From Paraspadella gotoi (lineage: Eukaryota > Animalia > Chaetognatha): a stretch of 64,000 nucleotides of DNA. Positions 3,933-56,182 of the stretch are shown here, piece by piece (position 1 is the first letter of the stretch; each line of letters begins with the position of its first letter). Below the pieces are notes generated by a model, which saw only the letters and a list, made by a program, of their open reading frames with translations, did no database searches and was not told the DNA's origin. The stretch is from the NCBI GenBank assembly GCA_051294375.1, contig CM119269.1, forward strand, positions 12,366,981-12,430,980. Reading direction: 5' to 3'. The translations under genes were made by a program, and so were the position numbers.

Positions 3933-3942
3933 TATGTCTTAA

Positions 3943-4408: not shown

Positions 4409-5327
4409 GTTCCCGACGATCGTGTTGCCGTTTAAACTCGATACTTTTTAATCAGCGTCGACAGAATTTTTGTTGTGAAGAAAGAGAGAAAAACGAAATG
4501 TGTTGCGCCACAGTAACTTTATATTCCTGTGCATTTCTCTTTGATCACATAAGACAAAACATGACATCACATGACAAGACTAACAAACTTTCTTTGCCCG
4601 TCTATTTATGACATGCACTGCATCAAAATTTCGTCTTTTATTCCTTATAGTTTTAGCATTTCCTGAAGGCGGCGCGAGCAATCCCATAGATTTGAGGGTT
4701 TTTTATGTCTTAACAAATGAGCAACCAACCATAGGCAAATTATGTGAATTATTATAGTAACTGGGACAGATAGATGAACAGACATACCGACCAACCGACA
4801 GACCGACTGAAAAGTGACTTAAAAATATGCGATTTGACGTCATCCTCGTTTTCGTCGTCGTTATCGTCGTCGTTATCGTCGTCGTTTTCGTCGTCGTTAT
4901 CGTCGTCGTTATCGTCGTCGTCGCCGCTCCAGTCCAATATAAGAGTCATTTGTTATCTTCTTATTTCAAACTTTTACCTTGAAGCAAAAGTGATAACCAC
5001 AACGCCTAAAGCCTTAAACAAATAGTTCTTTCCATTTGACGAAAACGCTTTTAAAAAACTTTGATTTTATTTTTTCTCACTCAACAAGTTGTGATATAAA
5101 TCCTTGTAGTAGTAAAATTACTATGATTTTTCGCTATGATTTCGTTATTTCCCTATTTTCATTACTCTTTCAATTCCAGTTATATATATTTAAACGATTA
5201 TAAACGCAATCCATGAGGAGTTGGAATACATAAAATCTTTACATTTACTGGATTAAAATAATTCGAGTTCCGACGACGACACCATTTCTTCGAAAAGCTC
5301 TCACATTTCTAAGAAAAGCTCTCGTAA

Positions 5328-7588
5328 TTGACAACGACAACAACTTCAACGCGGCTGAGAATAATAACAGCAACAAGAGCGATCGCCTTCGCCACGACGA
5401 CGCCTCCGCTCCACCGCCGCGCCCGCTTCCGCCCTCTTGTCCGCCTCTGGAGTCTCTGGGCGGCGGCGGCGTTTTTGGCGTCCTTGGCGGCGACAACGAC
5501 CGACGCCCCCCCGCGGAAAGACCAGCGGGGGGGCGTCGAGGAAAGGAAAAGGTAAGGAAGGGTGAGGTGGATCAATCTCTCTCTCTCTCTCTCTCTTCCA
5601 TAAGCCTTTCTCTCTTTCTCTCTATCCTTTCTTTCTGTTTTCTTTCCGTGTTTCTTCCTTCTCTCTCTCACTCTCTCACTCGCTCCCTCTCTCGCTCTCA
5701 CGTGCAGTGAATTAGGGAAGAAGAATAATCGATCTTTCGAGTCACAAAAGTCGCAAAAACCTCGAGATTATGAGAATAATAATGAGCACGTGACCAAAAA
5801 GAAATTAAAGAGATGGAAAAAAAATAACATCGCAAGGATAAGAAAAAGAATAAATCAATTAGGAAATTAAAATGTTGTTAGCGTCAAGATGTTCCTCTTA
5901 TTTGCTTAATTCATATGTCTATATAAAACGTAAAGTACAATTGTTATTACTTTCTTTTCTCATTCTGATCATAACTTCTTGAATCAATCAATGAATAAGA
6001 ATATTTAAACTTCAACCCTTAAACTTATCTAAAAATTCTCGTTTATGAGTTTGAGGAACATGCATCGGCAGACATAAAAAACATCCTTTATTCATGAATT
6101 TTTTCCTTAATAAATTCAAATAATTGAGGAAACGCGAATTCCGTTTGAACATTTTTTTCGGGCATCGACTCTGGCAGCTCTCCACCACTCGTGATGCGTG
6201 AACATTGGCAATGATTTACAAATTGAGTGACTCTGAACTCGAGACTTCCATAAAATTATTAATAATTATACTATTGTCAGCTCACTGTTAGTCTTGCTGT
6301 TTAAACAGATGCACAATAGACGTACATCGTTTTATTTCGCGCCCTTTGATGCGTTTCGCAATGTGTTTTCTATCCCTTCGGCTTCCAATCCTTCTTCGCA
6401 TAGGTCCCGTCTCGTTTGTCCTCAGTCCGCTTCAGCCTTCCCCGTTATAATCGTCCGCTTATCCCCTTCTTCCTCTGCCTCTTTATCTTTCTCCCCTCGC
6501 ACTCCTTTACTCTTACTCTCGTCTTATCTTCCGTTCATCGCTTTCTTACTCTCGTCCTCTATTCTCCTTCCGATTCCTTTTCCTCCATCTCTCTTTTATC
6601 ATTGCCACGTCCCTCGTCATACTCCGCGTATGTAAACTTCTTACTACTCGTATATCCTTACTCTCTTTTATTCTTATCCTTTCTTCGCACTTCTCTTCTC
6701 ATCCGTCTACTCTACTCTATCTTCCTTTCACGTCCTTCTACATCCTCCACTCACTTGTATCCTTGCTTATCCCTTTCTTTATCTTCCTCTCTCTTATCTC
6801 TCTTATCTTCTTCATCCCTTCACCTCTCTCTTTTATCTTCCTTCAATCCCTTTCTTCCTCTCTCTTATCTTCCTTCATCCCTTTCTTATATCTCTTTATT
6901 CTTCCTTCATCCCTCTTTCTCCTTTCTCTTATCTTTCCTTCATCCTTCTTTCTCTCTCTTTACTCTTCATCCCTTCTTCTTCTCTTTATCTTTTCTTCCT
7001 TCTCTCTCTCTTTTACTCTCTCCTTTATCTTCCTTCATCCCTTCCTTTCTCATTCTCTTTTCTCTTCATCTCCCTATTCCTTCCCTCTCTTTCTCTTCCT
7101 TCATCCCTTCTTTCCTCTCTTTATCTTCCCCTCCCTACACAAACTCTCTCTCGTCCCCCTCTCCCTCTCCTCACTCTCTCTCTCCCTCTTTTCTCCCTCT
7201 TTTCCCTCTCTCTTTCTCTCCCTCACTCTCTCTCCCTCCCTCCTCATCCCCTTCTCCCTCCCTCTCCTCTTCTTCTCTCTCTTTCTCCTCCCTCCTCCTC
7301 CCTCCCTCCCCCCTCCCTCCCTCTTCTCCCTCTCTATCTCCCTATTTTCCGCTCGATCTCCTTTATTGCAGCGCGGATTCCTCTTTCGTCTTTTCCTCGA
7401 TTCTTAGCGACAGAATCTTTTGTGTTCTTCCCGGTTTTTTTCCTACAACAATAACAAAAATAGATAAATCAAACTATTCAGTTAAAAATATTAAACGTAA
7501 TAATTCACAGTGTATTGATTGCTGTGAATCTAACCTTTTTCCCGACGTAAAAAATAACAATTCTTCAATATTTGTCGAAAAGGACACC

Positions 7589-7641
<53 letters not shown>

Positions 7642-8669
7642 GCCTATTTTTTTCTTCACTGTTACATGGTGACAATTTTACAAGCGCCGGTAGAAATACG
7701 CTGTCATTTGCAAACCAGTGGTTATTTCATTGATTTTAAAATTAGTTAAGTAGAAACTATTAAAGTCATTTATGTGTTCAAATTTTATATTGATCAGTTA
7801 AGATATGCCTTGACAATGAGTGGAGAAAGTTAGCTTGTAAAATTGGTTTCATTTTCCAATTTTTTTCTCTTACTTTCAGTAAGTTTCTGAAGAAATTGAA
7901 ATAAAATAATATTAATATTATTTTCTTCTGAAAGCCTTTCAAATCTAAAGAGAATGACATACTTACAACTACTGTAGTATAAAATTTAACCAGCCCAGCT
8001 TTAATTTAATTAGGATACTCAAAAACAAGACATCTTTCCAAAAATCATAGCTCTAGAGTAAATTTAGGATTTTATTCAAATTGTGATTGGCTATCTTAAA
8101 TCTCTTTTTCAGGCTCTTTCATGATAGTTATATAAGTAATAATATTTTATGTTATAATAATTTAATAGGTCATATATTTTAAAATAGATTTAAAATTTTA
8201 GATAATTAACTTTTGACTCTCTTAATTGAACCAAGGCTGGGCAGCTTAATTTTTATGTTAGAGCTTTCGTAAGTATATCATTCTCTTCATTTTTTAAGGG
8301 CTTTCTGAGGATATTAATATTGTTAATATCTTAATAAATACTTTGTTTAAAAAAGTGATAGAAGTTGAAAAAAAAAATAAATTTCAAAACAGCGTGTTGG
8401 AAAATGAAACCGGATTTTACAAGCCAACTTTCTCCACTCATTGTCAAGGCATATCTTAACTGATCAATATAAAATTTGAACACATAAATGACTTTAATAG
8501 TTTCTACTCAACTAATTTTTAAAATCAATGAAATAACCACTGGTTTGCAAATGACAGCGTTTTTTTACCGGCGCTTGTAAAATTGTCACCATGTAGATTA
8601 AAGCTTCAGATTTCTTTCGATGTCGTCTGAAATTCGATCTAGATAAAAAGAAATAAAAAGATAAAAAAA

Positions 8670-8734: not shown

Positions 8735-10526
8735 AAAAGGAAAGAAAGAAAGAAACAAAAAGAATAAAAGAAAGAAATAACAGATCTCAGCATAAGATAA
8801 CAAAATAAAGTTTTCTCTTGGTAAGTTTTACTCCATCGCCCAATTCCCTTACCTTCCCAGATTCGCCAACCCGCCCGTCGCCTCTACTTCGCATCCACCT
8901 CACCTTCGAACGCCGCCTTTTCTCAACTCGCCTCACCTCGCCGAACGCCGCTTCCGACCCCGTCGATTCTCGGCTCCGCAGGCGCCGCCCCCGCTGCCGC
9001 GGCGCCGTTACTTTCCTCGCCCCACTTGCGATCTGCGGCGGGAATTTCGCTGCGGCGACGGAAAATGCATCGAAGCGAGAAAATATTGCGATGGAACTGA
9101 TGATTGTTGGGATGGAACCGACGAGTTCCGCTGCTCGGGTGAGTTAGAAGATGGAGAGTGAAATTTTGGGAAAGTTTGAAGTTGGAAGAGACGAAAGTGT
9201 TTGTTGAGAGAAATCGTCGGTTAAAGATGAAAAAATGAGAGAATGAATGAATGAATGAATGAATGAATGAATGAATGAAATTTGAGATAGAAATGACAAA
9301 TATAAAACAGAAAAAGAAATAGAAATTAGAGATAGAAATGATGAATATAAAACAGAAGAAGAGATAGAAATGACGAATATAAAACAGAAAAAGAAATATA
9401 AATTTGAGATAGAAATGACGAATATAAAACAGAAAAAGATTAGAAATTAGAGATAGAAATGACGAATATAAACAGAAAAAGATTAGAATTTAGAATAGAA
9501 ATGATGAATATAAAACAGAAAAAGATTAGAATTTAGAAATAGAAATGACGAATATAAAACAGAAAAAGATTAGAATTTAGAGATAGAAATGACGAATATA
9601 AAACAGAAAGAGATTAGAATTTAGAGATAGAAATGACGAATATAAAACAGAAAAAGATTAGAATTTAGAGATAGAAATGACGAATATAAAACAGAAAAAG
9701 ATTAGAATTTAGAGATAGAAATGAACGAATATAAAACAGAAAAAGATTAGAATTTAGAGATTATAAATGCACGAATATAAAACAGAAAAAGATTAGAATT
9801 TAGAGACAGAAATGACGACATCGACTTTTTTCTCATCACATCGACTTCGATTTCCTGAGAAAATTAAATAAAAATCGATCTTATGAGGTCGACAGTCGAC
9901 CTGGTGATACGAAACCAAAAATTCGGGGAAAAAATCAATAAATTGACGAGACAAAAAGTTGAAGGAACTAAATTTTTTAGCTTCACTTTTCACCAAATTA
10001 TATTAGGTTTTATGTCTAGAAAGACGGAGAGGGCGTTAGAAGTTCTCGCTCGTTAGACTCTCAGTCCAATTGTGAAAGTAGAAGCAGGAATTGGGGATAT
10101 TTTATGGGTTCACGATTTTGAGGAGAAAGGTTCGAAAGACAGTAATAACCGATGGTCGGTCGTTGAGAAATGAGTCTCGCCGAATAAATATGAGACTTTT
10201 TTTCAGCTTTTAAAATATGCTAGACTCGTTAGCTGAAGAAATGTGCAAAGGAATTTCATGGCGCCGAATCATTTTAAGCATCAAATCTGCTATTAATTTG
10301 CTATAAAGGAAACAACAGCAGGTTAAATTTGGGGGAAAAAAAATTGGCACCTTTTATGAAGTGGATTGAGTATTTCGTAGCTAATCGTCATCCCGGCTTT
10401 CGGGAATTCGTCCAATCAGGCGTCCGGAAGTTCGAGACGACGACCAATCACAGAACGAGTTTTTTATGGTCTTCGTATCTCATCGACGGCGACAAAGGAA
10501 TTATCTTCAGTCGTAATAAATATTAA
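5328..10526 (+). CDS. Predicted small secreted protein with a single LDL-receptor class A module; exons ~5328-5551, 8861-9138, 10381-10526 (start codon not located)
   Basis: 9027-9134 encodes [36 protein letters not shown] (six Cys plus the acidic DC.DG.DE motif of LDLa). Exons have GT-AG ends and matching phases (2, then 1). The first segment has a hydrophobic stretch [19 protein letters not shown]. The LDLa exon is secure; the flanking exons are inferred from phase only. Confidence 0.7.
6620..7345. repeat. Polypyrimidine low-complexity tract (intronic)
   Basis: Almost exclusively C/T; source of the 418-aa and 214-aa S/L/P/F ORFs. Confidence 0.9.
7665..8593. mobile_element. Non-autonomous Tc1/mariner-type MITE, copy 2 (inverted relative to copy 1)
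   Basis: Same TIRs as 3000-3932, TA at 7663-7664 and 8594-8595; the interior matches the reverse complement of copy 1. Confidence 0.9.
9280..9820. repeat. ~41-bp tandem minisatellite (AGATAGAAATGACGAATATAAAACAGAAAAAGATTAGAATTT)
   Basis: About 13 visible head-to-tail units, preceded by (GAAT)n. Confidence 0.93.
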
Positions 10527-16268: not shown

Positions 16269-18003
16269 AAAGAGAGAGAATGTTATAATCGAGATTCGAG
16301 AAGATGACACTTTAATGATTTTTTTTTTTAAATTGTTCTTATTAATTTAATTTGTTACTGTGGCAGCAAGACTTAAAGCTGCCTCACTGCTGTCCGTCCT
16401 CAGCCTCGTCTCAATGGCTGAGCAGGCTAAATCATCTCATTCCATCCGTGCGTCCCGGGTTCAATCCCTGGGCATCCCGGTTCTGGCTTAAATGTGACGG
16501 TGCCGGTATAAACATGCCAGTGACAGGAGGCGGTCACTGAGGGTCCACAGCCCCTACGCCAGTTTGTGAGATACCCCGCGCCCTGGGTATCACAGGCTAT
16601 CCTCCCGTTGCCATAAGTGGTGAGCCCTACTCTCGAACACGCAACCGCTGCGCACCATGGCCCATGCTTACGTTGCTTTAGGTATGCATATCACGCCTAT
16701 GCCCTACTTCTCTGGTAACGCTTCCAGACTCGCTCGCGACCAGCCGCTCGCTCTCACTATGGCATGGATCAAAAACCTTCTCTCAGACATACCTCAGGAT
16801 TGAGGCCCCTGTGGAGAAGTCTGGTGGGGGGATCCTGTGGCAGCAAGACTTAAAGCTGCCTCACTGCTGTCCGTCCTCAGCCTCGTCTCAATGGCTGAGC
16901 AGGCTAAATCATCTCATTCCATCCGTGCGTCCGGTTCAATCCCTGGGATCCGGTTCTGGCTAAATGTGACGGTGCCGGTATAAACATGCCAGTGACAGGA
17001 GGCTCACTGAGGGTCCGCGCCCCTACGCCAGTTTGTGAGATACCCCGCCCTGGGTATCACAGGCTATCCTCCCGTTGCCCATAGTCTTCCCTTACGTCAC
17101 AACTTATTTTTTATCTTGTTTTTATTAATGTTTTTTATTATTAAATAATCAACATCGTATTAACACAAACAATAACGCGTAACGGTATCAACAACGCTTA
17201 AAAAACTGGAAGGGTAACGGTATAAATAATAGCGAAAAAGTCTGTAACACAGTAAAATAAAAACTACACTGATAAGATGTAATATTTCTTTTGATATTTT
17301 TAATGTTATGAACTAATTCATAAAAAACTTAAATATAACGTTCAAGAATCAGATGTTAATATCATAAAAACCAGAAACAGTAAAAAACGATAAACGTCAA
17401 GTATAAAAACGTTCAAAATAATACGCAAAAACAAAAATTTCAAAAACATGAAATTTTATAAATATTATGAAATGTTTAACCTTAAAATAAAACGTTCTTA
17501 AAACGTGAAAGATATTAAAGTCAAAACAGCGCTTAATTATGTAAAAAATCTAAAAAATTTAAAAAATCTTAAATTTTGATAATTTTAACTGTAATTTTAA
17601 TTTTAACTGTAATATTTTAACAACGCATAAAACATAATTATAGATAGCAAGCTACAATAAAAAAAAATTCATCACGCAAAATCAATTAAAGACGCTGTTT
17701 TTTTAATTTTTTTAATAAATAATTCATGTACTATATATATATAATGATCGCTTGAATAAAGAATAATTTTAATTTAAATAAAATTCGTACCGTAAAATTA
17801 ACCATAAACAAAAAAAATATAAACAAGTTAAAAACCCGAATTTTCGTTGCTATAGTCGAAAAACCTTGACAGTTCTAGGCCGCCATTTTGGAAATGGAGA
17901 ACAATATCGAGAAGTTGTTCGTGTATGCAAATAGTTTGCTTGAGTAACATATCGCAGCGGCGGTACGTATTGGAAGATGGGGGAACTAATTGAGAGAGAG
18001 AGA

Positions 18004-18076: not shown

Positions 18077-19379
18077 GAAATGTGAAATTTGGTAAAAACA
18101 TTAAATCGGCTTGGGAAGAAAAGGAAAAGAGATAAGAAACCCAAAAGTCGCCGAAAATTCGTTTAAAAAAAGAACGATAATTATTTTCTCAACAATTTAA
18201 TTAACAGTTTTTATCTTTTTGAAAAGGCGCTTACAATGCTGATCCGTAGCTTTATCTTGGGATTAAAACCGTGGTTAAGGGCTCGATCGACCACAAAGGC
18301 GGCTTAGAACTAGATGGTACTTGTTATATTATAAATGACGAAAACTTTTCATCTACAGAAAAAAAAAAAGTGAAGAATTTTTGACGCTGAAGTCATCATA
18401 ATTTTTTATAACGTTTTATATTTTTGGTTTAACTTTTTATGGGGAATCTAAATCTTTATTAAAATAATACCATTAATTATTTAACTAATTATTTAACTTA
18501 TATAAATTATTTACAATTTACAATTTATTTCAAAACCTTAATAAATTTCTATAAAATTAATAATGCTGTGATGCCAGGGCTTTGGTATGTTTAAGATAAA
18601 TATTCAAAATATACCTTTAAAATATAAGATAAGCAACAATGAAGTATCACCATTTAGTGATGGCTCGCCTATACCTGGATATTGGGATTAAAGAGCCGAA
18701 ATCCATGAAGGGTATAGGTTCCCAACTGATGACCCTCCCATTGTATAAACATAAATGATAAAAATTATTCAAAAAAGAAATAATTAAAAAGTAGTATAAA
18801 GAAAAAATAAAATTGTCATTAAAGTATTTTAAAATTATATTCATGACATAAAGGTGCCCCTATAGACCTTTCCCCAGTATGTATCCCTATCAGAACATAC
18901 AATTCTACATGGTAGTCTTATCCCTATTGGTAAAAAAATCATATATAACGTTGGTCCCCCCTCAAAAAATTATCCATTCCCACCCCTTTCTGTTCAGCCT
19001 CTTAGATATTATGATTTTTCATTAATGATTTTCTAACAGAAATGATGTGTGATATCTATTAGAAAACTAGTCTAGATAGTAATCTAGCCTTGTGTTGTAT
19101 AGATGCTCCCTCTATTTCCAGAAGACATCACTGACTTCCCCTTCCCAAATTGAATTATTAGATAAATAAAATATTTTTAAAAAAGAAAGCAATATATATT
19201 TGATTAAATAATATAGATTAAATAGTAAATCCTTCATAAAAATATTAAAATAGAAAAATATAAAATAGTGAAACAAGTAATTTGCAAATTTTCATATACT
19301 CGATAATTTTACTACCTCGCATAAAATTATTATTTTTAATTGACTCAATTCAATTTTTTGTTCTTCTTACCCATGTGAC

Positions 19380-19440
<61 letters not shown>

Positions 19441-19782
19441 TTCTTTAGCACAAAAATGTAGACTAAATTTCAAACCTGTTAACGCTGATGAAGGCTCGAA
19501 ATTAAGAGCCGAAACATGTACGTTTATGAAAGAAATAAACCAAACGTTGTTGAAACAAATTTTTCAAACTTTTTATATTTTTGGTCTAACTTTTTATGGG
19601 GAATCTAAATCTTTAATAAAGACTTCATATACTCGATAATTTTACTATCTCGCATAAAATTTTTATTTTTAATTGACTCAATTCTAAGCTACAGTCTTCT
19701 TACCCATGAAAGAAGGCGATGGCTGCAGCGACGAAGAAAGCGCAAAAACAAAGGAGGATCGTGTTGAATCGATGGAGTGTGG

Positions 19783-19842
<60 letters not shown>

Positions 19843-22484
19843 GAGAGAGAAACATATTCATTTTTTAAATACTTAATAAAATAAATAAAGAAGGAAATAT
19901 TAAACGAGGAAAAGGTGTTACAAAAATATGTTTTTATTAAATTAATATTTAAACATTTTTATACTAATTATCAGTAGCGAAGTAGTAGATTCACATAGTA
20001 GCATCTTATAAGACGTATGTTTATGATCTAACTGCCAAAATAGAGTGGTGTGAAAATAATAAATTTTTAGAAAATTAAAATTTATTTTTTAATTTTATAC
20101 ATACAGTGAGCTATATTTATATATAATAATAAGTATATAAGAAGCTAAAATTTAAAAATGCACTTGATGGCAGCCGTGTGTCCCACCTTTCCGAGGTGGG
20201 ATTAGACCTCCATTTGATGTCTTTTTTGGCTAGCCTCCGACAAAAAAACCAACAAAGCTACAATTTCATAAGTTTTTCGAGCTGTTTTTTGCTAAATATA
20301 GTTTTTTGTAATAATAACATAATTTTTAAAAAAGATTTATATTTTCTTTTATCAACTTTTAACGAGGAATCTGAATCTGTTTTCAGAATTTAAAAAAACA
20401 CTATTTTAAAATTTTGATATTATATAAGGGTAGTATTATATACAAAATAAACTGACTGGGCTACAATATTTATAAAAAAAAATAACTAGAGATTAGAATT
20501 CATTAATATAATAGTTTTTAAGATATAATTGCTAAGTTTTGATTCCAAACTTTCACTTCACCCTACTAAGGAGTTATCCCTGTTTTTTTTACTTTTGAAA
20601 CACTGTAGCACAAAAGGAGATAATGACAAAAAGCGGAACAGCTGGTCACCATTAATTTATTAAGTTTAAATATTTTTCAAGCTATCGATAATAAATAAAT
20701 ATTTTTATTTAATTTCTTGAACGTTTTCTGTTTAAACGGAGAGTAGAAAAATTTGTGCGTCTCGAAAGAATTAACATGTGCAAACCAAGATAATTAATTT
20801 CATAATTAATAAATAAATTGACAATAAATAAATAAATAAATTGAAAATACTCTCGACTTTTCGAGCACCATACTTTTCTTTAAGACAGACCTACTATCGT
20901 AAATTCTGAAAAAACAGGTTTCAAGGAAAATTAGTTGCATAGGTTTTATTTATGGTAGGTCTTTCAGAAATTAGCAAATCGCATGTAAATTGTAACACTG
21001 ATTAAAATAATAAAACGTTACCTGGATCCGTGAACCGCATAAAATCCTAAAATGACGGAGAGGAAGAGAGAGAAGATGGCAAATGCCATCAACCCGAATG
21101 TGGCGCGCATCAGGTGGAACCGGTGCCATTCCTGAGACGAAGAGGAAAACAAATCTGGAATCATCAGCCTCTTTTTTTTCTCTCAAAGTCAATTTGTGTT
21201 TTTTTGCGAGGGAAAAAAAAGAATTCGAAGTCAAAATGGAATCGAGGCCATATTTACTTAAAGCGGCCCATTTAAGTTTATATTCCAAATAAAGTTAATT
21301 TTTAGAATTAAAGATATTGCCGGAAGACAACGATAATACCACTCTCCTTATTATAATTATTATATATTATTATTATATATCATTATATTAAATTAAACTA
21401 ATAATTGAAGTATTTTGCTTTCTTTTCGTTGCGTTTTGATTGAGAGAAAACAAAGTTTGTAATTTTTAATAGAGAAACTATTTTTTAAAAATATAACAAC
21501 GGACATGTTTCGGCTGTTATTTTTCGAGCCTTCTTCACGGTTTGAAAGTAAGTGGCATCAGCAACAATATCACCAAGAGCAACAGCATCAGTAACAGCAT
21601 CAGCAAGACCAATAGCATCAGCATCAGAAACAGTGTCAGCATCAGCATCAGCAGCATCAGCAGGAACAGCATTTGCCGCCAGAATCTCTCCTTTCTCACT
21701 TTGTTCCGGAAGTTGACGTTGTGATCTGGCGGAATCTGCAAGTCGATGTAGAAGCAACGAGTCGAGATTCCTGAAGCAAATCTTTCGAATTGATTGACGA
21801 GATCGAGAGGATCGACGCCGGCTCCGCTATTAGGGATGACATAGACGATTAAGGGAAGGACTCATTGTTGACGTCGTTCTTGTTGTCTGTCGTGCGAGGA
21901 TTTAACGCTATATTTTATTTCATTTCTAAGCCGTCCTCACGCAAGTTACCGCAGGGTAAGTACCGTTGAGGATTGATCCCGGTACCTAATGGTCATGAGG
22001 TCTGATTTTCAGGTATATTTAAAAATTTCAATTTAACTGCGAAATGTAATGTTTAATTCCCAGAGCTAATTTTTCTTACGAGGCGACAAAGTCATGGGAC
22101 CCTAGGTCCTATTACCAGATGTTAACAGCGAACTATATTTCGTCATTGATATTATTTGGCTTGTTGTGTTTTTTTTTAGGGACTCACGTGAACTCGTCAC
22201 ACATGCATTCACGCAAGAGGCCGAAGTGATGAGGGTGATGCTCGTGTCGAATCGACTCGTTGACTGCAGGGGCGCCTGAATCAAAAAAAAAAAAAAAACT
22301 AGAGTGAGACAGAGACAGAGCGAGAGAGAGACAGAGATAGTGTCCGCCCGTCCGTTTTTTTCTCACCGGTCGTTCTCCAAACGTCCATCCAGTGATCAGT
22401 ACCGAGAGCGATGATGCTGCAGATGAGCGCCAAAATCGCGAAGAAGAGGCCGAGGCCAATGAACAAACTCATTTTACGCTGCAT
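13110..22484 (-). CDS. Claudin/PMP22-superfamily four-TM protein, ~412 aa, 11 exons: 22484-22367, 22275-22188, 22132-22080, 21985-21941, 21907-21700, 21131-21022, 19784-19704, 16198-16085, 15693-15521, 13580-13525, 13298-13110
   Basis: TM1 MSLFIGLGLFFAILALICSIIALGTDHW, loop motif HFGLLREC...C, TM2 RATFGLMAFAIFSLFLSVILGFY, TM3 ILLCFCAFFVAAAIAFFHG, TM4 YCYSWSYAFAWLACIFAWIAAVMFAVG. All introns are GT-AG. Exons 1-2 and 6-11 are phase-consistent as written; exons 3-5 need bases present in the duplicate copy. AATAAA on the minus strand at ~12817-12822. Confidence 0.88.
14930..15150. repeat. Degenerate (CCCTAA)-like hexamer array
   Basis: Recurring AACCCT/AATCCT/AACCTA variants; highly eroded. Confidence 0.5.
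15198..15385 (+). mobile_element. tRNA-derived SINE-like element carrying a twister ribozyme fold
   Basis: tRNA-like head 15198-15269 (acceptor stem GCGGCCA/TGGTCGT, A-box-like TGGTGCCGGAGG, B-box-like GGTTCTAGCCC), twister at 15275-15344, (ATA)n tail. No TSD recognised and only one copy in the window. Confidence 0.7.
15275..15344 (+). ncRNA. Twister ribozyme, type-P5 permutation (predicted cleavage U15296^A15297)
   Basis: P5 AGTT/GACT; P2' G(A)GG with P2 CCC; GA 15285-15286; T1 CGG with CCG; UAA; T2 GC/GC; P3 CTGTAAC/GTTACAG; P4 CCTGA/TCAGG closing loop TCCGAAGC. Confidence 0.85.
16483..16562 (+). ncRNA. Twister ribozyme (type P5) in 5' LTR (predicted cleavage U16509^A16510)
   Basis: P5 CTGGC/GCCAG; P2' ATGT with P2 ACAT; GA; T1' CGG; UAA; GC; P3 CAGTGAC/GTCACTG; P4 AGGG/CCCT; loop TCCACAGC (one T1 mismatch in this copy; C in place of the first A of AAGC). 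Confidence 0.75.
16956..17031 (+). ncRNA. Twister ribozyme (type P5) in 3' LTR (predicted cleavage U16981^A16982)
   Basis: Same fold; T1 CCG/CGG is intact, but several single-base deletions affect P3 and the P4 loop (possible assembly errors). Confidence 0.65.
18461..19290. mobile_element. ~0.8-kb dispersed repeat (other copies ~28645-29431 and ~60549-61222; inverted fragment split at ~43500-43569 / 45644-45670)
   Basis: Near-identical sequence at three places (e.g. GATGGCTCGCCTATACCTGGATATTGGGATTAAAGAGCCGAAATCCATGAAG); class not determined. Confidence 0.8.
19480..19525 (+). ncRNA. Minimal type I hammerhead ribozyme (Penelope-type), cleavage after GUA at 19520
   Basis: AACG-CTGATGA-A-GGCTC(gaaattaa)GAGCC-GAA-ACATGT-A-CGTT: intact core, stems I and II, palindromic stem III; AATAAA follows. 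Confidence 0.88.
21497..21543 (-). ncRNA. Degenerate type I hammerhead of the same family
   Basis: Minus strand AAACCG-TGAAGA-A-GGCT(cgaaaaataac)AGCC-GAA-ACATGT-C-CGTT; the C of CUGANGA and stem I are disrupted. Confidence 0.6.
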
Positions 22485-22957
22485 CGCTGCTCCGTTCGGC
22501 CTCTTGCTGCCGCTGGTACTGCCGCTTTTGTTGTTGTTTTCGTTTGACTTTTATTTACACTTGGAGTCGGAGATTAAAGAGTTGTGCTGTTTGTTTGTTT
22601 GTTTGTTTGTTAAAGAGTTGTGTTGTTTGTTTGTTTATTTGTTAAAGAATTGTTCTGTTTGTTTGTTTTTTTCACCGAATCGTTTCTTTACTGTGAATTG
22701 TTTTCTGTTCCTGTTTAGCGCGACTTTAAAGAAATAGAATGAAATATATACTGTAGTTGTTGTTGTCGATTCAATTTGTAAAAATTTTAAAAAAATAATC
22801 TTAAAAGCATAAGGATCGAGCCGCATTCGATAGTAACCAAANNNNNNNNNNGGCTCGATAACAATTTATAATTTGTCAAGAAAAAAAAATAGAAAAAAGT
22901 AAAGGGGAAGAAATGCGGTAGAATGAACGAATTGATACGTAATATAATATAATATGA

Positions 22958-23212
22958 TATGGCAACAGCCGGGTTGCCTGTGATGCCTATTGGGGTGGGG
23001 CATCTCACTGTTGGCTTTGGGGGCTTCCGACCCTCAGTGACGCCTCCAGTCACTGGCGCGGTTACGCTAGGACGGTCTCGCTTTGCCAACGCAGAGGGAA
23101 GTCGTGAGGACTGTGGATGGAACACTACGCTTGGGATGGTGTGTTCCCCTTCTGAGCCAATGGATTTGGCTGAAGGATGGTGGACGTGAGGCGGTGTGAA
23201 TATACCGCCACA
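22958..23212 (-). mobile_element. Solo LTR related to the 16359-17083 element, with 4-bp TSD ATGA
   Basis: Minus strand TGTGGCGG...GTTGCCATA, 255 bp; ATGA at 22954-22957 and 23213-23216; shares CCAGTGAC..GTCACTGAGGGTC and GTGAGAT.CCCC...ATCACAGGC blocks. Confidence 0.88.
23010..23090 (-). ncRNA. Twister ribozyme (type P5) in solo LTR (predicted cleavage between 23064 and 23063)
   Basis: P5 GTTGGC/GCCAAC; P2' GCG with CGC; GA; T1' CCG pairing with CGG in loop TCGGAAGC; UAA; GC; P3 CAGTGAC/GTCACTG; P4 GGG/CCC. Confidence 0.82.
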
Positions 23213-23907
23213 ATGACTTTGTTTGCTCCAACCACCAGCAATGTCGGGATTTATTTTCCAGAAGATAATTTATAAGATAATATTTTCGAAGCCTACAAGG
23301 GCTGCGTCGACCGTCAGATGAACTATCTTGAAAATGTAGCAAGGGTTTATCAATCGTAAAGGGACAGTAAATGTCGAATAAATGACGATTATTTAATTTT
23401 GGCTAAAATAAAGCAGCTAAAATGGCCACTCGAATACTGACCCGACGCGGGCTCACAGAATATCTTTAATTAATATTTATAAGGATTATGATGACGACGA
23501 CGACTTCCGATGATAATTGATGATCATGATGCGATTCTATTAATGATAATGAAAACGACGAAGAGGTAAAGGACCTTTTTCACCGCAGAGGGCGTGGCTA
23601 CCGTGACACAGTTAATCGCGTCCCGTCACTCCGGTTTTGATCGACCGAGGAATCCGAAGGAAAACAATTAAAAGAAAAACCGGAAAAAAAAGAGAAAAAT
23701 GTTAAAGAATAAAGAGACTGTAGTCGGGCATATCATATCCACAAGACAAACTTATTACGAGTCTCGCGTCCAATTTTCTTTCTTTATTTCTTTTTATTAT
23801 TGTTGTTGTTGTTGTTGTTTTATTCATTTTTATGCTAATCCAAAGGAAAATGATTTCTCTTCGATATTGAGAAAAGGATTCGATGTGAATTAAATCCGAG
23901 CTGTGAT

Positions 23908-24175
23908 CAGTGACGTGTAGAAGAGACCTGGTGGAGACCCTTCACAATTTTTTTGGGAGGGAGGATATTTTAAAATACGATTAATTTTATAACTTATAAA
24001 AATATTTATATCCATATTTTTTGTATTTTTTTAATGTTTCAAACTCATATAAAAATATTTTGTGCGAAATTAATGTGTTTATTTTATCTTTTATTTCTTT
24101 ATATTTTTTCGGAATCTCCCCAAGAGCCAAGTCCTCTGTCAAATTTCTAGAATCTACCCCTCTACACGCCTCTGG
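23908..24175. mobile_element. Possible old hAT-type MITE (duplicate at ~33804-34065)
   Basis: Imperfect TIRs CAGTGACGTGTAGA / TCTACACGCCTCTG; TSD not intact. Confidence 0.4.
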
Positions 24176-25188
24176 CAGAAATGTCACAGCTTTGCTATGA
24201 ATTGATCCAAACTGATGTCACATTAAGGATCAACTTAAAATAATCGAAGATAAAATTGAAACATATAGAAAAAGAAAGTTTGCTGTTTTCCATCAATATT
24301 TTAAAGATTGAAAAAAACAAAAATTAATAATTAAGTATGACTTGTCTACTTGAAATGGAAGTATTTATCTTTGTTCGTTTCGTCGCGACAAAGAAGGACA
24401 CAACATAACTTCGTCTTTGTTTCCACGTTTCGCGTGGGTGATATCTCGAACATTTCTCATATACTTTCAGCCAATGAGAGATGTCTTTGACTTTAATATT
24501 GACCAATCAAGAGCAAGAATTTTTTGAAAGATAAAGAAATGACGGAAATTTTTCGAAATTTTTTAGCGCCAGTGATGATGGGAGTTATTTAGCCAAATAT
24601 AAATTTTATTAAATAATAAAATAACTACTTAAACTTCTTTTGTCCAGTCCTCCCACCATTGGATTCTTTTCAGGCTTACTCATATTTTTTTTAAATAATA
24701 TAAAATAAGAAATTCTTCTGTTAGGTTGGCGACCAATTTTGTCTTCAAAAATTTTAACCACGAGAAAATGACGAATCCAAATCTTTCTTCTCGAAACGCG
24801 AGTAAGACACTGGGACGGGCCCGCGAGTCAGCGAGCCAGCGAGTCAGCTCGATCTAGCGAGTTCGTGGGCGAATTCAAGATCAATGAATCGTTTTTGATT
24901 GAATTAGAAAAAGAGAAAATGGTTTTTTTTTTGTTAAAACTTAAATTCAAGGAATAACCACAGTGAGTACGACGACGACGACGACGACCACGACGACATC
25001 AAATTCATCTTGAGAAGAGATTCCATGTTTCGAATGAACGTCTGGATTTGCTTCGCCGTCGCAAGATCACTGCACAATGCAGAGTGCACATCTGTACGGA
25101 CCGGACTTACAGTTACAATACTGTTTTGGATTAGATATATTTTTGCCCCAAGGAAAAAAAAGACGACGACGAAGAAGAAGACGAAGGA

Positions 25189-25224
<36 letters not shown>

Positions 25225-26147
25225 AAAACCGGTTTGAAAGGGATTGTCTCTTCGATTCGCTCCCGATCGGCTAAAATTTACTGAATTGAAAAACCGGTTG
25301 GATTTTAGAGACGAATCTGTCGAAAACTTTTAACGTGAGGCGACTTACATTAAAAAAATAATATTCAAACTTGATTTACGATTCATGCATGAATGGTAAA
25401 CTATACTTAAAAAGAATAAGAAATTAAAATTATTTGATGTTTCAATGAACAAAATTAAATTCGTACTTAGAATTATATATTATATTATATTATCTTTCCG
25501 TCGCGTTATTTTGATCGGAAACCAAGATTCAATTTGAATTCCCGCGCCATCCTACTCGCCCCCCCACCCCATGTCTCATCGCTCAAGCCTCGCGATTTCC
25601 GCTAAAATGATCACGAATACATACAATAAATCCAGGCTAAAGTTTCATCCTCGCCCTTTCCTCTCTCATTCACATGCGCGAGGGGGGCCTCGCAGTTTGC
25701 CCTTTCCATGTTTCATCTCTCTGAATATTGCTTTGAAAAAAAAATTATTTGGTTATTAGTGTTTTAAACTTTTAATATAAATTTTCTTTAACGTACATAG
25801 GAGAAATAATATAATAGAAATGATAATCATCATGACAATATCAATTATAATATAGTATCAATTGTACAAATTTCATAGTATATTATATTATATATAATAT
25901 ATATTATATATACTATATTTCACAAAGCGGGAGTTGCGGCTTTAAAAAACGCAGTTGGGTTTAGCGCCTCCATTACTAAGAGGGAGAAATAGAAAATCTA
26001 AAAAGCAGAAAGGAAAAGGAAAAATAGAATATAATAATAATAATACATAAAAAACTCTACAAGCATGATTAGGATTGTCTTACGCCGGTGTGTACGACAG
26101 AGGCTATTTACCGTGTATAACTAACGCAGAACGTGCGGAGAGAGAGA

Positions 26148-26239
<92 letters not shown>

Positions 26240-26601
26240 AAAGAGAGAGAGAGGTGGGCGGGAGGACACTGGTTAAAAAAAAAAATTCAATTACTGTTTG
26301 AATTTATCAGTTGAAAAAATCACACATTGTTTCTTTTCTCCCGAATTTGAAGAAAATTGGATGGAAAAGAAAGAAAAAAAAAAGAAAAGAAAAAAGTCTC
26401 TTCCCTGGATTTCCTCCTTAAGCCCCTTTCCTTCTCTGTCTCTGTCTCTGTCTCAAAACGTTTCCCCTCCTCTCTCTCTCTCCCTTTTTTTGGTTCATCG
26501 ACAAGAGGGATGGTTAAGAGAATGAATGGGAGAAATGAACGAAGGAAGTGGGGAGAAAATGAGAGAAAACTCGCTTNNNNNNNNNNNNNNNNNNNNNNNN
26601 N

Positions 26602-28644
26602 ATGTCGTAAGTCTGTACATGGGAAAACTTTTCCATTTATAGGATAAATAGCTTTAGGATTTTATAGGACGTTGCCTGGATGTCTGGCTATTGCCCATTT
26701 AAGCAATTTTTCAAAAAAATAATCTTAAACCACTTAAAAATTGGGTCAAAATTTTTTAAAAAACTTGCATAGCTCTAATATATTTGAAATTTTTTTCTTA
26801 AAATTTTGCTAACTTGTACTTAAGAGGTTTGTAAACTTCTGTAGAAATATTGTTACTATCAAAAAATTTTTTGCCATATTTATCAGTGCTAATATTTTAG
26901 ATGGGTCATTTTTTCAATGATGCATAACTTCCTTATTTGTGAATATTATGGTTTTAAATTTTAGTAATAGGTGGGCCTTGGGTAGTCCTACAATACATAT
27001 AAATTTCAATCATTTTGAAAAACTTTTTGACACAGGTCAATTTTTTTTTACAAAATTCAATTGTCAATCCTGCTAAAAATATTATTGCAAATAATGTTAT
27101 TCTTTGCCTATAAATCAGTTAAAACATATTTAAAATAAGCCTAAAGCAAAACATTTTTCTCAACATTTTTAAAAACACATTTGCATATTGTTGCATTTTA
27201 TAATTTTTTACAATTTTTTCACATAAAACTAATCCATTTTTAAAATTTTTGGTACACAGATAATATATAATCAAACCTTTAAAAATATACCATCAAACCT
27301 AATTTTTAATTAATTTCAAATATTTTTAATGTATTTTATATATTACTAAAAATTATGATTTTAATAAACATTCTGCTAACTTTTTCAAAAGTGGGCATCA
27401 TTGAAAAGAGGGCAACTCAAGGATTCCAAATATATAATTTTTTTACCAATTTAATGTCCCAAAGCTGAGATAATTCTTTCCAAAGTGCTCAAAAAATTGA
27501 AAAAACACTACTTTTTAATCGTTAATAGAAAATGCGACTATGATAGTTTTGTTTCAATACTTGGTAACTAGGTCAAGAATTGTTCATATTTTGTGGTAAT
27601 GTCATGTCCAGGGAAGAAAATAAATATTATAGTAGTTTCCTCAATCGATTTTAAATTTGGCAGAACATTTTACTCTTTTTTACCAAGTTTTTAGAGAATG
27701 CTAAACGTTTCTCTGATTACGCAAAATAGAATTTGAGAAATAAAAAATTAATAGTACCAATAGTTGGTGTTATGTCTCAAATAGATGGAAAAAAAACCTT
27801 GTTTAAAAATTTGATCTGGAAAAGGGGTAACTTTGGCATACCAATGGCATCGTCAATGCCAATCGTTCTTTCAAATAATTTTTTTTTTTTTAATACATTG
27901 AAAGGGGAAAAGGAAATTCGAAATGCTGGTGGTATGAAAGTTATAGAAAATCTGGCCATAGTGACTTGATAATCATGACCTTTTATGTCTTGTGTAATGG
28001 GGGCAGTAAATAGACCCAAAAAATTCAATCATTAAGTCAGTCAATCAACCCTTTCAAATAGACTGTTCTGCGAAATTTTTTCTCTTCACTCAAAAATTTA
28101 TTTTCTTCACTAAAAAATTTCGCAGAACAACCTATTTGAAAGGGTTGATTGACTGACTTAATGATTAAATTTTTTGGGTTTATTTACTGCCCTCATTACG
28201 CTAGACATAAAAGGTCATGATTTTCAAGTCACTATGCCCAGATTTTTTATAACTTTCATGCCACCAGCATTTTGAATTTCCTTTTTTCCCCTTTCAAATG
28301 TATTAAAATAAAAAAAAATATTTGAAAGAACGATTGGCATGGACGATGCCATTGTTACGCCTAAGTTACTCCTATTCCAGATCAAATTTTTAAACAAGGT
28401 TTTTTTTCCATCTATTTGAGAACATAACACCAACTATTGGTACTATTAATTTTTTATTCTCAAATTCTATTTTGCATAATCAGAGAAAGGTTAAGCATAC
28501 TCTAAAAACTTTGGTAAAAATTGCTTAAATGGGCAATAGCCAGACATCCAGGCAATGTCCTAATAAAATCCTAAAGCTATTTATCCTGTAAATGGAAAAG
28601 TTTTCCCATGTACAGACTTACGACATTCTTGGTTTCCGGTACTG
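26602..28644. mobile_element. Non-autonomous Tc1-like element, left tip lost in the N-gap
   Basis: ~110-bp inverted repeats at 26602-26710 and ~28517-28626; right end ...GGTTTCCGGTACTG|TA (TA-CAGT terminus typical of Tc1); no transposase ORF. Confidence 0.8.
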
Positions 28645-29530
28645 TATAAATTATTTACAATTTACAAATTATTACAAAACATTAATAAATTTCTATAAAA
28701 TTAATAATGCTGTGATGCCAGGCTTTGGTATGTTTAAGATAAATATTCAAAATATACCTTTAAAATATAAGATAAGCAACAATGAAGTATCACCATTTAG
28801 TGATGGCTCGCCTATACCTGGATATTGGGATTAAAGAGCCGAAATCCATGAAGGGTATAGGTTCCAACTGATGACCCTCCCATTGTATAAACATAAATGA
28901 TAAAAATTATTCAAAAAAGAAATAATTAAAAAGTAGTATAAAGAAAAAATAAAATTGTCATTAAAGTATTTTAAAAATTATATTCATGACATAAAGGTGC
29001 CCCTATAGACCTTTCCCCAGTATGTATCCCTATCAGAACATACAATTCTACATGGTAGTCTTATCCCTATTGGTAAAAAAATCATTATAACGTTGGTCCC
29101 CCCTCAAAAAATAATCAATTCCCACCCCTTTCTGTTCAGCCTCTTAGATATTATGATTTTTCATTAATGACTTTCTAACAGAAATGATGTGTGATATCTA
29201 TTAGAAACTAGTCTAGATAGTAATCTAACCTTGTGTTGTATAGATGCTCCCTCTATTTCCAGAAGACAACACTGACTTCCCCTTCCCAAATTGAATTATT
29301 AGATAAATAAAATATTTTTAAAAAAGAAAGCAATATATATTTGATTAAATAATAAAGATTAAATACTAAATCCTTCATAAAAATATTAAAATAGAAAAAT
29401 ATAAAATAGTGAAACAAGTAATTTGCAAATTTTCATATACTCGATAATTTTACTACCTCGCATAAAATTATTATTTTTAATTGACTCAATTCAATTTTTT
29501 GTTCTTCTTACTCGTGTGACATGTCTCTCT

Positions 29531-29603
<73 letters not shown>

Positions 29604-29642
29604 TTCTTTAGCACAAAAATGTAGACTAAATTTCAAACCTGT

Positions 29643-29688
29643 TAACGCTGATGAAGGCTCGAAATTAAGAGCCGAAACATGTACGTTA
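29643..29688 (+). ncRNA. Minimal type I hammerhead (duplicate of 19480-19525)
   Basis: TAACG-CTGATGA-A-GGCTC..GAGCC-GAA-ACATGT-A-CGTTA. Confidence 0.85.
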
Positions 29689-29864
29689 TGAAAGAAATAA
29701 ACCAATCGTTGTTGAAACAAATTTTTCAAACTTTTTATATTTTTGGTCTAACTTTTTATGGGGAATCTAAATCTTTAATAAAGACTTCATATACTCGATA
29801 ATTTTACTATCTCGCATAAAATTTTTATTTTAATTGACTCAATTCTAAGCTACAGTCTTCTTAC

Positions 29865-29944
29865 CCATGAAAGAAGGCGATGGCTGCAGCGACGAAGAAA
29901 GCCGCAAAAACAAAGGAGGATCGTGTTGAATCGATGGAGTGTGG

Positions 29945-30031
<87 letters not shown>

Positions 30032-32648
30032 ATCATATTCATTTTTTAAATACTTAATAAAATAAATAAAGAAGGAAATATTAAACGAGGAAAAGGTGTT
30101 ACAAAAATATGTTTTTATTAAATTAAATATTTAAACATTTTTATACTAATTATCAGTTAGCGAAGTAGTAGATTCACATAGTAGCATCTTATAAGGAGTA
30201 TGTTTATGATCTAACTGCCAAAATAGAGTGGTGTGAAAATAATAAATTTTTAGAAAATTAAAATTTATTTTTTAATTTTATACATACAGTGAGCTATATT
30301 ATATATAATAATAAGTATATAAGAAGCTAAAATTTAAAAATGCACTTGATGGCAGCCGTGTGTCCCACCTTTCCGAGGTGGGATTAGACCTCCATTTGAT
30401 GTCTTTTTTGGCTAGCCTCCGACAAAAAAACTAACAAAGCTACAATTTCATAAGTTTTTCGAGCTGTTTTTTGCTAAATATAGTTTTTTTGTAATAATAA
30501 CATAATTTTTAAAAAAGATTTATAATTTCTTTTATCAACTTTTAACGAGGAATTTAAAAAAACACTATTTTAAAATTTTGATATTATATAAGGGTAGTAT
30601 TATATACAAAATAAACTGACTGGGCTACAATATTTATAAAAAAAAAATAACTAGAGATTAGAATACATTAATATAATAGTTTTTAAAATATAATTGCTAA
30701 GTTTTGATTCCAAACTTTCACTTCACCCTACTAAAGGAGTTATCCCTGTTTTTTTTACTTTTGAAACACTGTAGCACAAAAGGAGACAATGACAAAAAGC
30801 GGAACAGCTGGTCACCATTAATTTATTAAGTTTAAATATTTTTCAAGCTATCGATAATAAATAAATATTTTTATTTAATTTCTTGAACGTTTTCTGTTTA
30901 AACGGAGAGTAGAAAAATTTGTGCGTCTCGAAAGAATTAACATGTGCAAACCAAAGATAATTAATTTCATAATTAATAAATAAATTGACAATAAATAAAT
31001 AAACAAATTGAAAATACTCTCGACTTTTCGAGCACCATACTTTTCTTTAAGACAGACCTACTATCGTAAATTCTGAAAAAAAACAGGTTTCAAGGAAAAT
31101 TAGTTGCATTGGTTTTATTTATGGTAGGTCTTTCAGAAATTAGCAAATCGCATGTAAATTGTAACACTGATTAAAATAATAAAACGTTACCTGGATCCGT
31201 GAAACCGCGTAAAATCCTAAAATGACGGAGAGGAAGAGAGAGAAGATGGCAAATGCCATCAAACCGAATGTGGCGCGCATCAGGTGGAACCGGTGCCATT
31301 CCTGAGACGAAGAGGAAAACAAATCTGGAATCATCAGCCTCTTTTTTTTTTCTCTCAAAGTCAATTTGTGTTTTTTTCGAGGGAAAAAAAAGAATTCGAA
31401 GTCAAAATGGAATCGAGGCCATATTTACTTAAAGCGGCCCATTTTATTTTATATTCCAAATAAAGTTAATTTTTAGAATTAAAGATATTGCCGGAAAGAC
31501 AACGATAACACCACTCTCCTTATTATAATTATTATATATTATATATCATTATATTAAATTAAACTAATAATTGAAGTATTTTGCTTTCTTTTCGTTGCGT
31601 TTTGATGAGAGAAAACAAAGTTTGTAATTTTTAATAGAGAAACTATTTTTTAAAAATATAACAACGGACATGTTTCGGCTGTTATTTTTCGAACCTTCTT
31701 TCACGGTTGAAAGTAAATGGCATCAGCAAACAACATCACCAAGAGCAACAGCATCAGTAACAGCATCAGCAAGACTAATAGCATCAGCATCAGAAACAGT
31801 GTCAGCATCAGCATCAGCAGCATCAGCAGGAACAGCATTTGCCGCCAGAATCTCTCCTTTCTCACTTTGTTCCGGAAGTTGACGTTGTGATCTGGCGAAT
31901 CTGCAAGTCGATGTAGAAGCAACGAGTCGAGATTCCTGAAGCGAATCTTTCGAATTGATTGACGAGATCGAGAGGATCGACGCCGCTCCGCTATTAGGGA
32001 TGACATAGACGATTAAGGGAAGGACTCCATTGTTGACGTCGTTGTTGTTGTCTGTCGTGCGAGGATTTAGCGCTATATTTTATTTCATTTCTAAGCCGTC
32101 CTCACGCAAGTTACCGCCAGGGTAAAGTACCGTTGAGGATTGATCCCGGTACCTAATGGTCATGAGGTCTGATTTTCAGGTATATTTAAAAAATTTCGAA
32201 ATGTAATGTTTAATTCCCAGAGCTAATTTTTCTTACGAGGCGACAAAGTCATTGGGACCCTAGGTCCTTATTACCAGATGTTAACAGCGAACTATATTTC
32301 GTCATTGATATTATTTGGCTTGTTGTGTTTTTTTTTAGGGACTCACCGTGAACTCGTCACACATGCATTCACGCAAGAGGCCGAAGTGATGAGGGTGATG
32401 CTCGTGTCGAATCGACTCGTGACTGCAGGGGCGCCTGAATCAAAAAAAAAAAAAAAAAAACTAGAGTGAGACAGAGGACAGAGCGAGAGAGAGACAGAGA
32501 TAGTGTCCGCCCGTCCGTTTTTTTTCTCACCGGTCGTTCTCCAAACGTCCATCCAGTGATCAGTACCGAGAGCGATGATGCTGCAGATGAGCGCCAAAAT
32601 CGCGAAGAACAGGCCGAGGCCAATGAACAAACTCATTTTACGCTGCAT
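29865..32648 (-). pseudogene. Second copy of claudin-like exons 1-7, frameshifted as assembled (likely haplotype duplicate)
   Basis: Same exon sequences with different 1-bp indels; exons 8-11 are not duplicated. Confidence 0.6.

Positions 32649-35076: not shown

Positions 35077-35112
<36 letters not shown>

Positions 35113-36934: not shown

Positions 36935-37018
<84 letters not shown>

Positions 37019-37153: not shown

Positions 37154-37238
<85 letters not shown>

Positions 37239-41019: not shown

Positions 41020-56182
<15,163 letters not shown>

Follow-up and report, generated by a model that had tools for sequence, protein, structure and literature searches.

A 64,000-nucleotide stretch of the genome of the chaetognath Paraspadella gotoi (GenBank assembly GCA_051294375.1, contig CM119269.1, forward strand 12,366,981-12,430,980; hereafter the window, in whose coordinates all positions are given) contains at 16359-17083 a noncoding element of 725 bp bounded by two long terminal repeats (LTRs), each carrying a candidate twister ribozyme of the P5-permuted type. 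We read it as a protein-free miniature LTR retrotransposon that likely works as an LTR retrozyme: an RNA polymerase III (Pol III) transcript would be cut in both LTRs and the excised RNA would become a circle copied by a Gypsy helper. We give this reading a probability of roughly 0.55. Its parts differ in strength: that 16359-17083 is an LTR element is virtually certain, its twister fold is very probably under selection, and the ribozyme, judged from its letters, probably cleaves actively. The element belongs to a high-copy family of two subfamilies, A (to which this copy belongs) and B, with exact LTR ends, a solo LTR flanked by a target-site duplication (TSD), a shared primer-binding site (PBS) segment and a polypurine tract (PPT), and comparison of the subfamilies establishes that the predicted twister core has been kept through compensatory changes.

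The Twister Fold and Its Conservation

The structure was set from the 5′ LTR (LTR1) together with the twister consensus, and comprises the following features:

16483-16562, + strand: P5-permuted twister fold 1 (LTR1)
16483-87/16558-62, 16492-95/16512-15, 16518-39 and 16540-43/16552-55, + strand: helices P5, P2, P3 and P4 of fold 1
16498-500/16545-47 and 16516-17/16550-51, + strand: pseudoknots T1 and T2 of fold 1, with catalytic letters G16496 and A16497
16509-16510, + strand: predicted cleavage site 1, U^A, placed by its position in the twister-P1 alignment
16501-16508, + strand: P1, a loop-less self-complementary 8-mer whose predicted partner is the copy at 16973-16980 in the 3′ LTR (LTR2)
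16956-17031, + strand: twister fold 2 (LTR2), with T1 intact, the P4 loop (L4) one A short as assembled, and a predicted cut at 16981/16982
22958-23212, − strand: solo LTR of subfamily B, containing a twister of its own (23090-23010), with the 4-bp TSD TCAT on both sides

With majority letters the family has P2, P4, T1, T2, the general-base G and the general-acid A in the permuted order of type P5. A generic P5-twister descriptor run over both strands of the window returned two matches with one mismatch each, one in LTR1 and one in the solo LTR (22958-23212), and none in 4,000 dinucleotide shuffles of either (0/4000 each). A P1-type reading using a downstream GAUACC was rejected, because it leaves T1 unpartnered and because the family has another letter at 16565.

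Conservation of the fold is evident between the subfamilies. Over the 29 pairs, the majority letters of A and B differ at 16 positions; seven pairs have changed on both sides and six of the seven still pair, the compensated pairs being distributed over P5 (one), P2 (two), the T1 pseudoknot (one), and P1 (two). The chance of at least seven double changes is 1.8e-5, or 5.7e-5 without P1 and 3.9e-4 when invariant helices are dropped. Subfamily B keeps the catalytic G and A, and with the letters of the window 81 of 86 cells pair, against 26-41% in slid controls.

The original prediction, made from the sequence of the window, had placed the twister helices, G16496-A16497, the U16509^A16510 site, and the LTR2 fold where we find them. 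Family data and covariation lend good support to both its twister assignment and its identification of a nonautonomous LTR element, and other copies, which it proposed to check for the pairings, preserve P2 and T1 in the majority letters of the subfamilies. Its caveats fared variously. The T1 mismatch in LTR1 is real, but the G at 16547 that completes T1 makes up 98.6%, 99.6%, and 99.6% of depth in sequencing runs X1, X3, and X8, and the mismatch is therefore private to this copy. The P4-loop sequence CAGC, taken as a family trait, is one in subfamily A only, B having AAGC. In an assay covering ~2,600 natural twisters of type P1, cleavage tolerated faults in P1, in P2, and in most of P4, as well as a C.A in the longer pseudoknot and an A-to-C change at the trans A.A position (PMC11662667), which largely answers the CAGC caveat.

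Layout of the Element

The protein-free architecture originally described, LTR-PBS-interior-PPT-LTR, was borne out by alignment of the LTR pair, a PBS-like TGG, a PPT, and the short reading frames. At 725 bp the element falls within the size range of TRIMs (miniature retrotransposons with terminal repeats; <~1 kb). Its parts are as follows:

16359-16615, + strand: 5′ LTR (subfamily A, TG...CATA), 257 nt, from alignment of the LTR pair and family contig ends
16836-17083, + strand: 3′ LTR, 248 nt, from alignment of the LTR pair; ten bases of LTR1 absent, in gaps of 1-2 nt
16359-16387, + strand: 5′ hairpin of the LTR, which folds in subfamily B too, from other letters
16565-16594, + strand: 3′ hairpin of the LTR, one pair of which is compensated in subfamily B
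16616-16835, + strand: noncoding interior spanning between the LTRs, 220 nt; longest ATG-started frame 48 codons
16616-16646, + strand: PBS-like segment common to subfamilies A and B, with TGG at 16618, 2 nt past LTR1
16813-16832, + strand: PPT, 16 of 20 purines, 3 nt ahead of LTR2 and followed by TCC

LTR1 and LTR2 align with 246 identities, one mismatch, and 11 gap columns, ten of which are bases absent from LTR2. These are the deletions that had been noticed in LTR2 from the outset, and the conserved A of L4 is among them. The gap pattern, our sole guide here, makes assembly errors their likely source. Contig depth is very low over the deleted stretch of LTR2 (16938-16966) and zero past 17083, holes of a kind that prove nothing. 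At 16565 and 16584 both LTRs carry the same letters, unlike 97% and 99% of family depth in X1, as expected of LTRs copied from one template; 16359-17083 is therefore probably one real, young insertion. The 4-mer of its left flank, TTAC, reappears at 17092-17095, 8 nt past LTR2, as a displaced TSD or by chance. Separately, the interior stretch 16750-16763 is complementary to 16608-16625, which covers the end of the LTR and the start of the PBS, giving a predicted long-range stem over the primer site.

The Element Family

Evidence for the family consists of per-position tables of contigs assembled from public sequencing runs, rather than of individually collected genome copies. The runs fill 14 rows, 12 of which contain the stretch or part of it; nine are of organism A and none is listed as RNA, which bears neither way on transcription. 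Run X12 was among the rows left out. Organisms B and C contribute one to five low-depth contigs each, and may be relatives or reflect carried-over DNA. Run X8, labelled "RNA?", carries a diverged 355-nt contig also present in two DNA runs, and since the depth of this contig relative to the main interior (7.07 vs. ~900) is similar to that in the two DNA runs (202.9 vs. ~25,000-40,000 and 44.4 vs. ~5,000-7,500), X8 was treated as DNA.

Contigs lying on the subfamily A element number 1,886 in X1 and 1,636 in X3. Family contigs exit at 16359 (23 in X1, 21 in X3), at 16615/16616 (15 + 33 in X1, 27 in X3), and also at 16836, and one contig, with a depth of 897.5 in X8, spans 16638-16864. The data suggest a family on the order of a hundred copies; interior depth is ~115-200 times that of one diverged contig, a ratio that is not itself a copy number. 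Subfamily B is the commoner (7,662 and 7,460 contigs), and 160 and 168 X1 contigs exit its two ends. Because one X10 contig joins a subfamily B LTR to the 31-nt PBS segment of A (16616-16646), diverging after 16646, subfamily B is also a full LTR element, and a contig of organism C has a B-like LTR preceded by the same PPT end, GGGGATCC. The solo LTR of subfamily B is the single case in which a TSD was found. In addition, a decayed fragment of the 3′ part of an LTR lies at 48775-48840 (+ strand; 85% identity over 66 nt). Pattern scans of metagenome and viral contigs gave zero matches; two metagenome matches to the LTR-end/PBS motif and one prokaryote-genome match lie in bacterial DNA and were dismissed as chance.

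Pol III Boxes and the Proposed Cycle

Upstream of each twister the LTRs contain what appears to be an internal promoter of the tRNA type (Pol III type 2), which the original prediction had overlooked:

16415-16426, + strand (copy at 16892-16903): A box, an exact match to the consensus
16458-16468, + strand (copy at 16933-16943): B box, one mismatch to the consensus, within a 5-bp T-arm-like stem (16455-16471)
17107-17112, + strand: first run of at least four T past the element and a possible Pol III stop, with no such run inside the element

The assignment uses A- and B-box patterns that we take to be the consensus. Matches to the A-box consensus number four in the window, against 1.3 expected, and the B box follows the A box by 44 nt. 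A variant at 16469, with 8% of X1 depth, turns a G.U in the B-box stem into G-C, and the A box is kept in subfamily B. ARAGORN found no tRNA on the element. The boxes likely drive Pol III transcription, although for the Helenus group of TRIMs, which have such boxes, transcription by Pol III is itself described as unvalidated (PMC10886601). Helenus elements of animals use primers of the Gypsy type, leave TSDs of 4 bp, and are believed to depend on Gypsy helpers (PMC10886601). In size, in A and B boxes, and in the 4-bp TSD of the solo LTR, the features tested, the element fits Helenus/TRIMp3. Elsewhere in the window, at 1025-1308, an 11-bp minisatellite of 25 copies has a unit that matches the element's B box.

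We propose the following cycle. The A and B boxes would start a transcript near 16405 which, meeting no T4 run until 17107, would span both twisters. The two loop-less P1 8-mers would pair and the cores exchange strands, so that both cuts would be favored only once LTR2 exists, a step to which we give about even odds. Cuts at 16509/16510 and 16981/16982 would then free an RNA of ~475 nt with 5′-OH and cyclic-phosphate ends and no terminal repeat; the predicted unit, 16510-16981, is 472 nt, or 477 nt with the letters of LTR1, matching the size first proposed. Lacking a terminal repeat, the unit could not be copied by ordinary LTR strand transfer. RtcB-type ligases can join such ends, and a host enzyme of this type would rebuild one whole LTR in the circle. 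tRNA-primed reverse transcription would cross the junction without strand transfer, and a Gypsy integrase would insert the copy. The rebuilt LTR would thus remove the need for strand transfer, as proposed for plant retrozymes, which provide the precedent for such a cycle (PMC4918200, PMC7761336).

Possible Pairing of P1 across the LTRs

P1 is without the hairpin closure usual in twisters, and that it cannot fold as a normal hairpin had gone unsaid in the original description. Its self-duplex is predicted at −10.9 kcal/mol in subfamily A and −11.0 kcal/mol for the majority letters of B, and no hairpin is predicted in either. The copy of B in the window has letters of its own that break the self-complementarity, and the letter at 23066 that restores it accounts for 99% of X1 and X3 depth. 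Between A and B five of the eight letters differ with all four pairs kept (null probability 0.018 for the whole 8-mer), and the innermost C-G has become U-A, a pair formable only between two copies.

In an unconstrained fold of 16405-17083, in which P3-P5 do not take their native form and pseudoknots lie outside the model, the P1 duplex between LTR1 and LTR2 has a probability of 0.55 and both exchanged P2 helices 0.52, against 5e-6 for P2 within an LTR. Constrained folding makes the exchanged form 8.3 kcal/mol more stable than the separate form. The probability of P2 is 2e-4 in the circle and 7e-4 in the solo LTR, values that do not prove inactivity given that pseudoknots are again outside the model. 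Palindromic short stems allow cleavage as dimers in hammerheads (PMC6765202). Taken together, the predicted pairing of P1 across the LTRs suggests, with moderate support and at about even odds, a cross-LTR double twister.

Weighing the Alternatives

The results assembled in this section weigh against the retrozyme reading as a whole or against one of its steps, and each of the alternatives is best judged beside them. Concerning the fold, the covariance-model check proposed with the original prediction found a twister, but of the wrong type and well under threshold: a 161-nt stretch scored 23.1 bits (E = 0.005) with the Rfam twister-P1 model, whose gathering score is 67.2, copy B scored 16.8 bits, and all scores were 15-23 bits. 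There was no twister-P5 row in any scan, trimmed stretches included, in output that shows only the best overlapping clan member, and a scan of a 1,901-nt stretch reported nothing, hammerhead included. LTR2 fails the P5-twister descriptor, the A of L4 being among its missing bases. Throughout subfamily B, A.C mismatches stand at one end of P2 and at one end of P4, the covariation comes from two subfamilies, and the two twister stretches give minimum free energy (MFE) z-scores of 0.00 and 0.11, with pseudoknots outside the model.

MFE z-scores near zero and subthreshold Rfam scores are what a chance resemblance in a GC-rich repeat would give. Such a coincidence is nonetheless extremely improbable beside a descriptor that matches none of 8,000 shuffles and a clustering of double changes with P of about 2e-5. 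The low Rfam scores would equally suit an ordinary Helenus TRIM whose twister is a captured passenger, for instance a Penelope-type or SINE-like (short interspersed element) ribozyme repeat within the TRIM LTR, and no longer active or relevant; according to Kojima's proposal, Helenus LTRs originate from SINE insertions (PMC10886601). We consider this improbable: compensatory changes in P2, T1, P5, and P1 separate two subfamilies that share the PBS segment, so that unless the twister was captured twice its fold was selected while inside the LTR element, and an intact ribozyme within the transcript would hardly be neutral.

For P1, variants at 16501 (14% of X1 depth) and 16508 (7%) break the outer pair, exchanged P2 at p of at least 0.5 also arises in four of 30 sequences with shuffled P1 letters, and the null probability of kept self-complementarity rises to 0.17 for the inner four letters. 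P1 is also dispensable in twisters, imperfections in it not having reduced cleavage across the ~2,600 natural examples (PMC11662667); inefficient cleavage without P1 has been noted as well (PMC8501958). The twister might therefore cut as a monomer without P1, the palindrome serving another role, such as a packaging dimer signal, or being incidental. We regard this as rather doubtful, given that four P1 pairs survive five substitutions and that folding sets the P1 duplex exactly in register with both cores. Circles would still be possible, and monomer cleavage departs from the retrozyme cycle in the cross-LTR P1 step only, overlapping with it otherwise.

The predicted circle is 64% paired, with z-scores of −0.39 and +0.05 (20 of 60 and 34 of 60 shuffles being as stable), and so stays short of the >70% given for the RNAs of retrozymes (PMC4918200). 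A circle that is not unusually stable would suit what we see as the main rival to the circle cycle, in which the twister acts only as a maker of 3′ ends: a transcript starting near 16405 would be cut in LTR2 only, the cut serving as terminator, and the linear RNA, with its terminal repeat of ~105 nt, would replicate by strand transfer. Most Helenus LTRs examined by eye in the supplement of PMC10886601 have a T run right after the B box where the element has none, so a ribozyme could replace the terminator, and Cassandra offers an example of replication from a Pol III transcript with a short R (PMC10886601). The absence of a T4 run is in itself weak evidence, 33% of shuffles of the unit also being without one. 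Single cutting appears unlikely to us, as the LTR1 twister has the same family sequence and lies wholly within the predicted transcript, and as the predicted fold builds both cores symmetrically, such that the LTR1 cut would need to be blocked.

With regard to the retrotransposon side of the retrozyme reading, the PBS is graded as PBS-like, from its sequence and its sharing between subfamilies. No TSD surrounds the 16359-17083 copy (left TTAC, right GTCT), no reverse transcriptase or integrase was found among the 98 open reading frames of the window, and the B box of subfamily B is a noncanonical variant. We infer transcription, cleavage, ligation into a circle, mobilization, the primer tRNA, and the helper from sequence features.

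Genomic Neighborhood

The element lies within an apparent intron of a claudin-like gene recognized by weak Pfam matches, on the strand opposite to that gene; an LDL-receptor class A exon is located at 9024-9158 (+ strand; Pfam E = 1.9e-10). Both genes indicate an animal host, and a search for homologues gave no match. A duplication of ~8 kb (18549-26576 and 28693-36931), 86-100% identical in pieces, includes the first claudin-like exon (~22340-22490 and ~32505-32650) and may be an uncollapsed haplotype. At the position matching the subfamily B solo LTR, ~33035-33120 (− strand), there is a deletion-riddled remnant of the 3′ half of an LTR that starts near P1 and is probably a consensus artefact of the assembly. 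The duplicated segment therefore offers no clean empty site, and an empty-site test of the solo LTR yielded no proof of insertion. Inverted repeats occur at 27677-28520 (~850 bp, self-inverted, 90% identity) and 43567-45646, the nested arms of the latter (~44.2-45.1 kb) possibly being a DNA-transposon remnant. Dispersed repeats of ~80-98% identity pair 2996-3934 with 7663-8597 and link 18842-19146, 28985-29287, and 60779-61083.

Comparison with Known Systems

The ribozyme shares with the type-P5 twister, which Roth et al. reportedly described in 2014, the strand order P5-P2b-GA-T1b-P1-U^AA-P2a-T2a-P3-P4, the catalytic G and A, and both pseudoknots, differing in that its P1 is a loop-less palindrome instead of a hairpin and in scoring far under the Rfam threshold. 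Twister permutations are mentioned in PMC6765202, and twisters are known from environmental circular RNAs (10.1101/2022.07.19.500677) and animal non-LTR elements (PMC8501958). Among the latter, the T-variant twisters of Perere-3 RTE elements (Liu et al. 2021, PMC8501958) likewise process animal retrotransposon RNA and have a weak or variable P1, but they belong to non-LTR elements with a single 5′ ribozyme, no PBS or PPT, and no excision of a unit.

Metazoan non-LTR retrozymes and the dimeric hammerheads of Penelope-like elements (PMC7761336, PMC6765202, 10.64898/2026.07.22.740005) are also animal ribozyme elements and have a palindromic short stem favoring dimer cleavage, but with type I hammerheads in tandem units that lack LTRs, PBS, and PPT. 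The element stands apart from both in its sharply bounded LTRs, its PBS-like segment and PPT, and the TSD-flanked solo LTR of its family. Further related literature includes PMC11722881 and PMC8557442.

Helenus/TRIMp3 elements (Kojima 2024, PMC10886601) are TRIMs of <1 kb that share with it the A and B boxes in the LTR, a PPT, the 4-bp TSD in animals and, in some families, TG...TA ends, have a PBS where the element has a PBS-like segment, and differ from it in the T run after the B box. The available text on Helenus in PMC10886601 does not contain the word twister and has ribozyme only in a reference; its consensus file, as far as available and judged by eye, holds no twister, and the 10-mer of the element's PBS is absent from that file. 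In two wasp (Synergus) entries of the same data set, Helenus-2_SyJa-LTR and Helenus-2_SyUm-LTR (PMC10886601 DataS1), we recognize by eye a hammerhead core that is complete, ordered as in type III, and provided with complementary loops, situated just 3′ of the B box with no T run between, and unremarked in the part of PMC10886601 available.

We tentatively propose, at less than even odds, that a class of LTR retrozymes has been overlooked in animals, formed when a ribozyme, twister here and hammerhead in Synergus Helenus-2, was placed downstream of the Pol III promoter of a TRIM LTR. In the present family the twister would act as a natural strand-exchanged dimer of two LTRs that checks for completeness: transcripts with two LTRs would be cut at both sites, whereas solo-LTR transcripts and the finished circle, having one palindrome each, would be spared. 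In the literature searched, which included few subscription journals and was without Repbase, we found neither a twister-bearing LTR retrozyme nor one described from an animal, nor any naturally dimeric twister. In reviews, retrozymes fall into two groups, LTR elements of plants with type III hammerheads and non-LTR elements of animals that lack PBS and PPT (PMC7761336), the same source hinting at unpublished insect elements with type III hammerheads, and a 2026 preprint describes LTR retrozymes as primarily plant elements with type III hammerheads (10.64898/2026.07.22.740005).

If our reading is true, the element breaks both halves of this division and the LTR-circle strategy is independent of ribozyme class; it would also give a P5-permuted twister a biological role and might supply the first dimeric twister from nature. 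It raises the question of whether, in LTR replication, a circle made by a ribozyme can take the place of strand transfer through the R region, and suggests that published TRIM libraries hide further ribozymes.

A close parallel is with the plant LTR retrozymes (Cervera et al. 2016, PMC4918200; PMC5680766, PMC7761336), which have the same noncoding LTR-PBS-interior-PPT-LTR layout, a ribozyme in each LTR, 4-bp TSDs, solo LTRs, and a presumed Gypsy helper. Unlike them, the element has a twister in place of a type III hammerhead, an animal host, tRNA-type Pol III boxes, a length of 725 bp with a unit of ~475 nt as opposed to their 600-1000 nt, and a predicted circle that is not unusually stable, and their primer is tRNA-Met. 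The element likely works as an LTR retrozyme does, while standing outside the plant family as defined.
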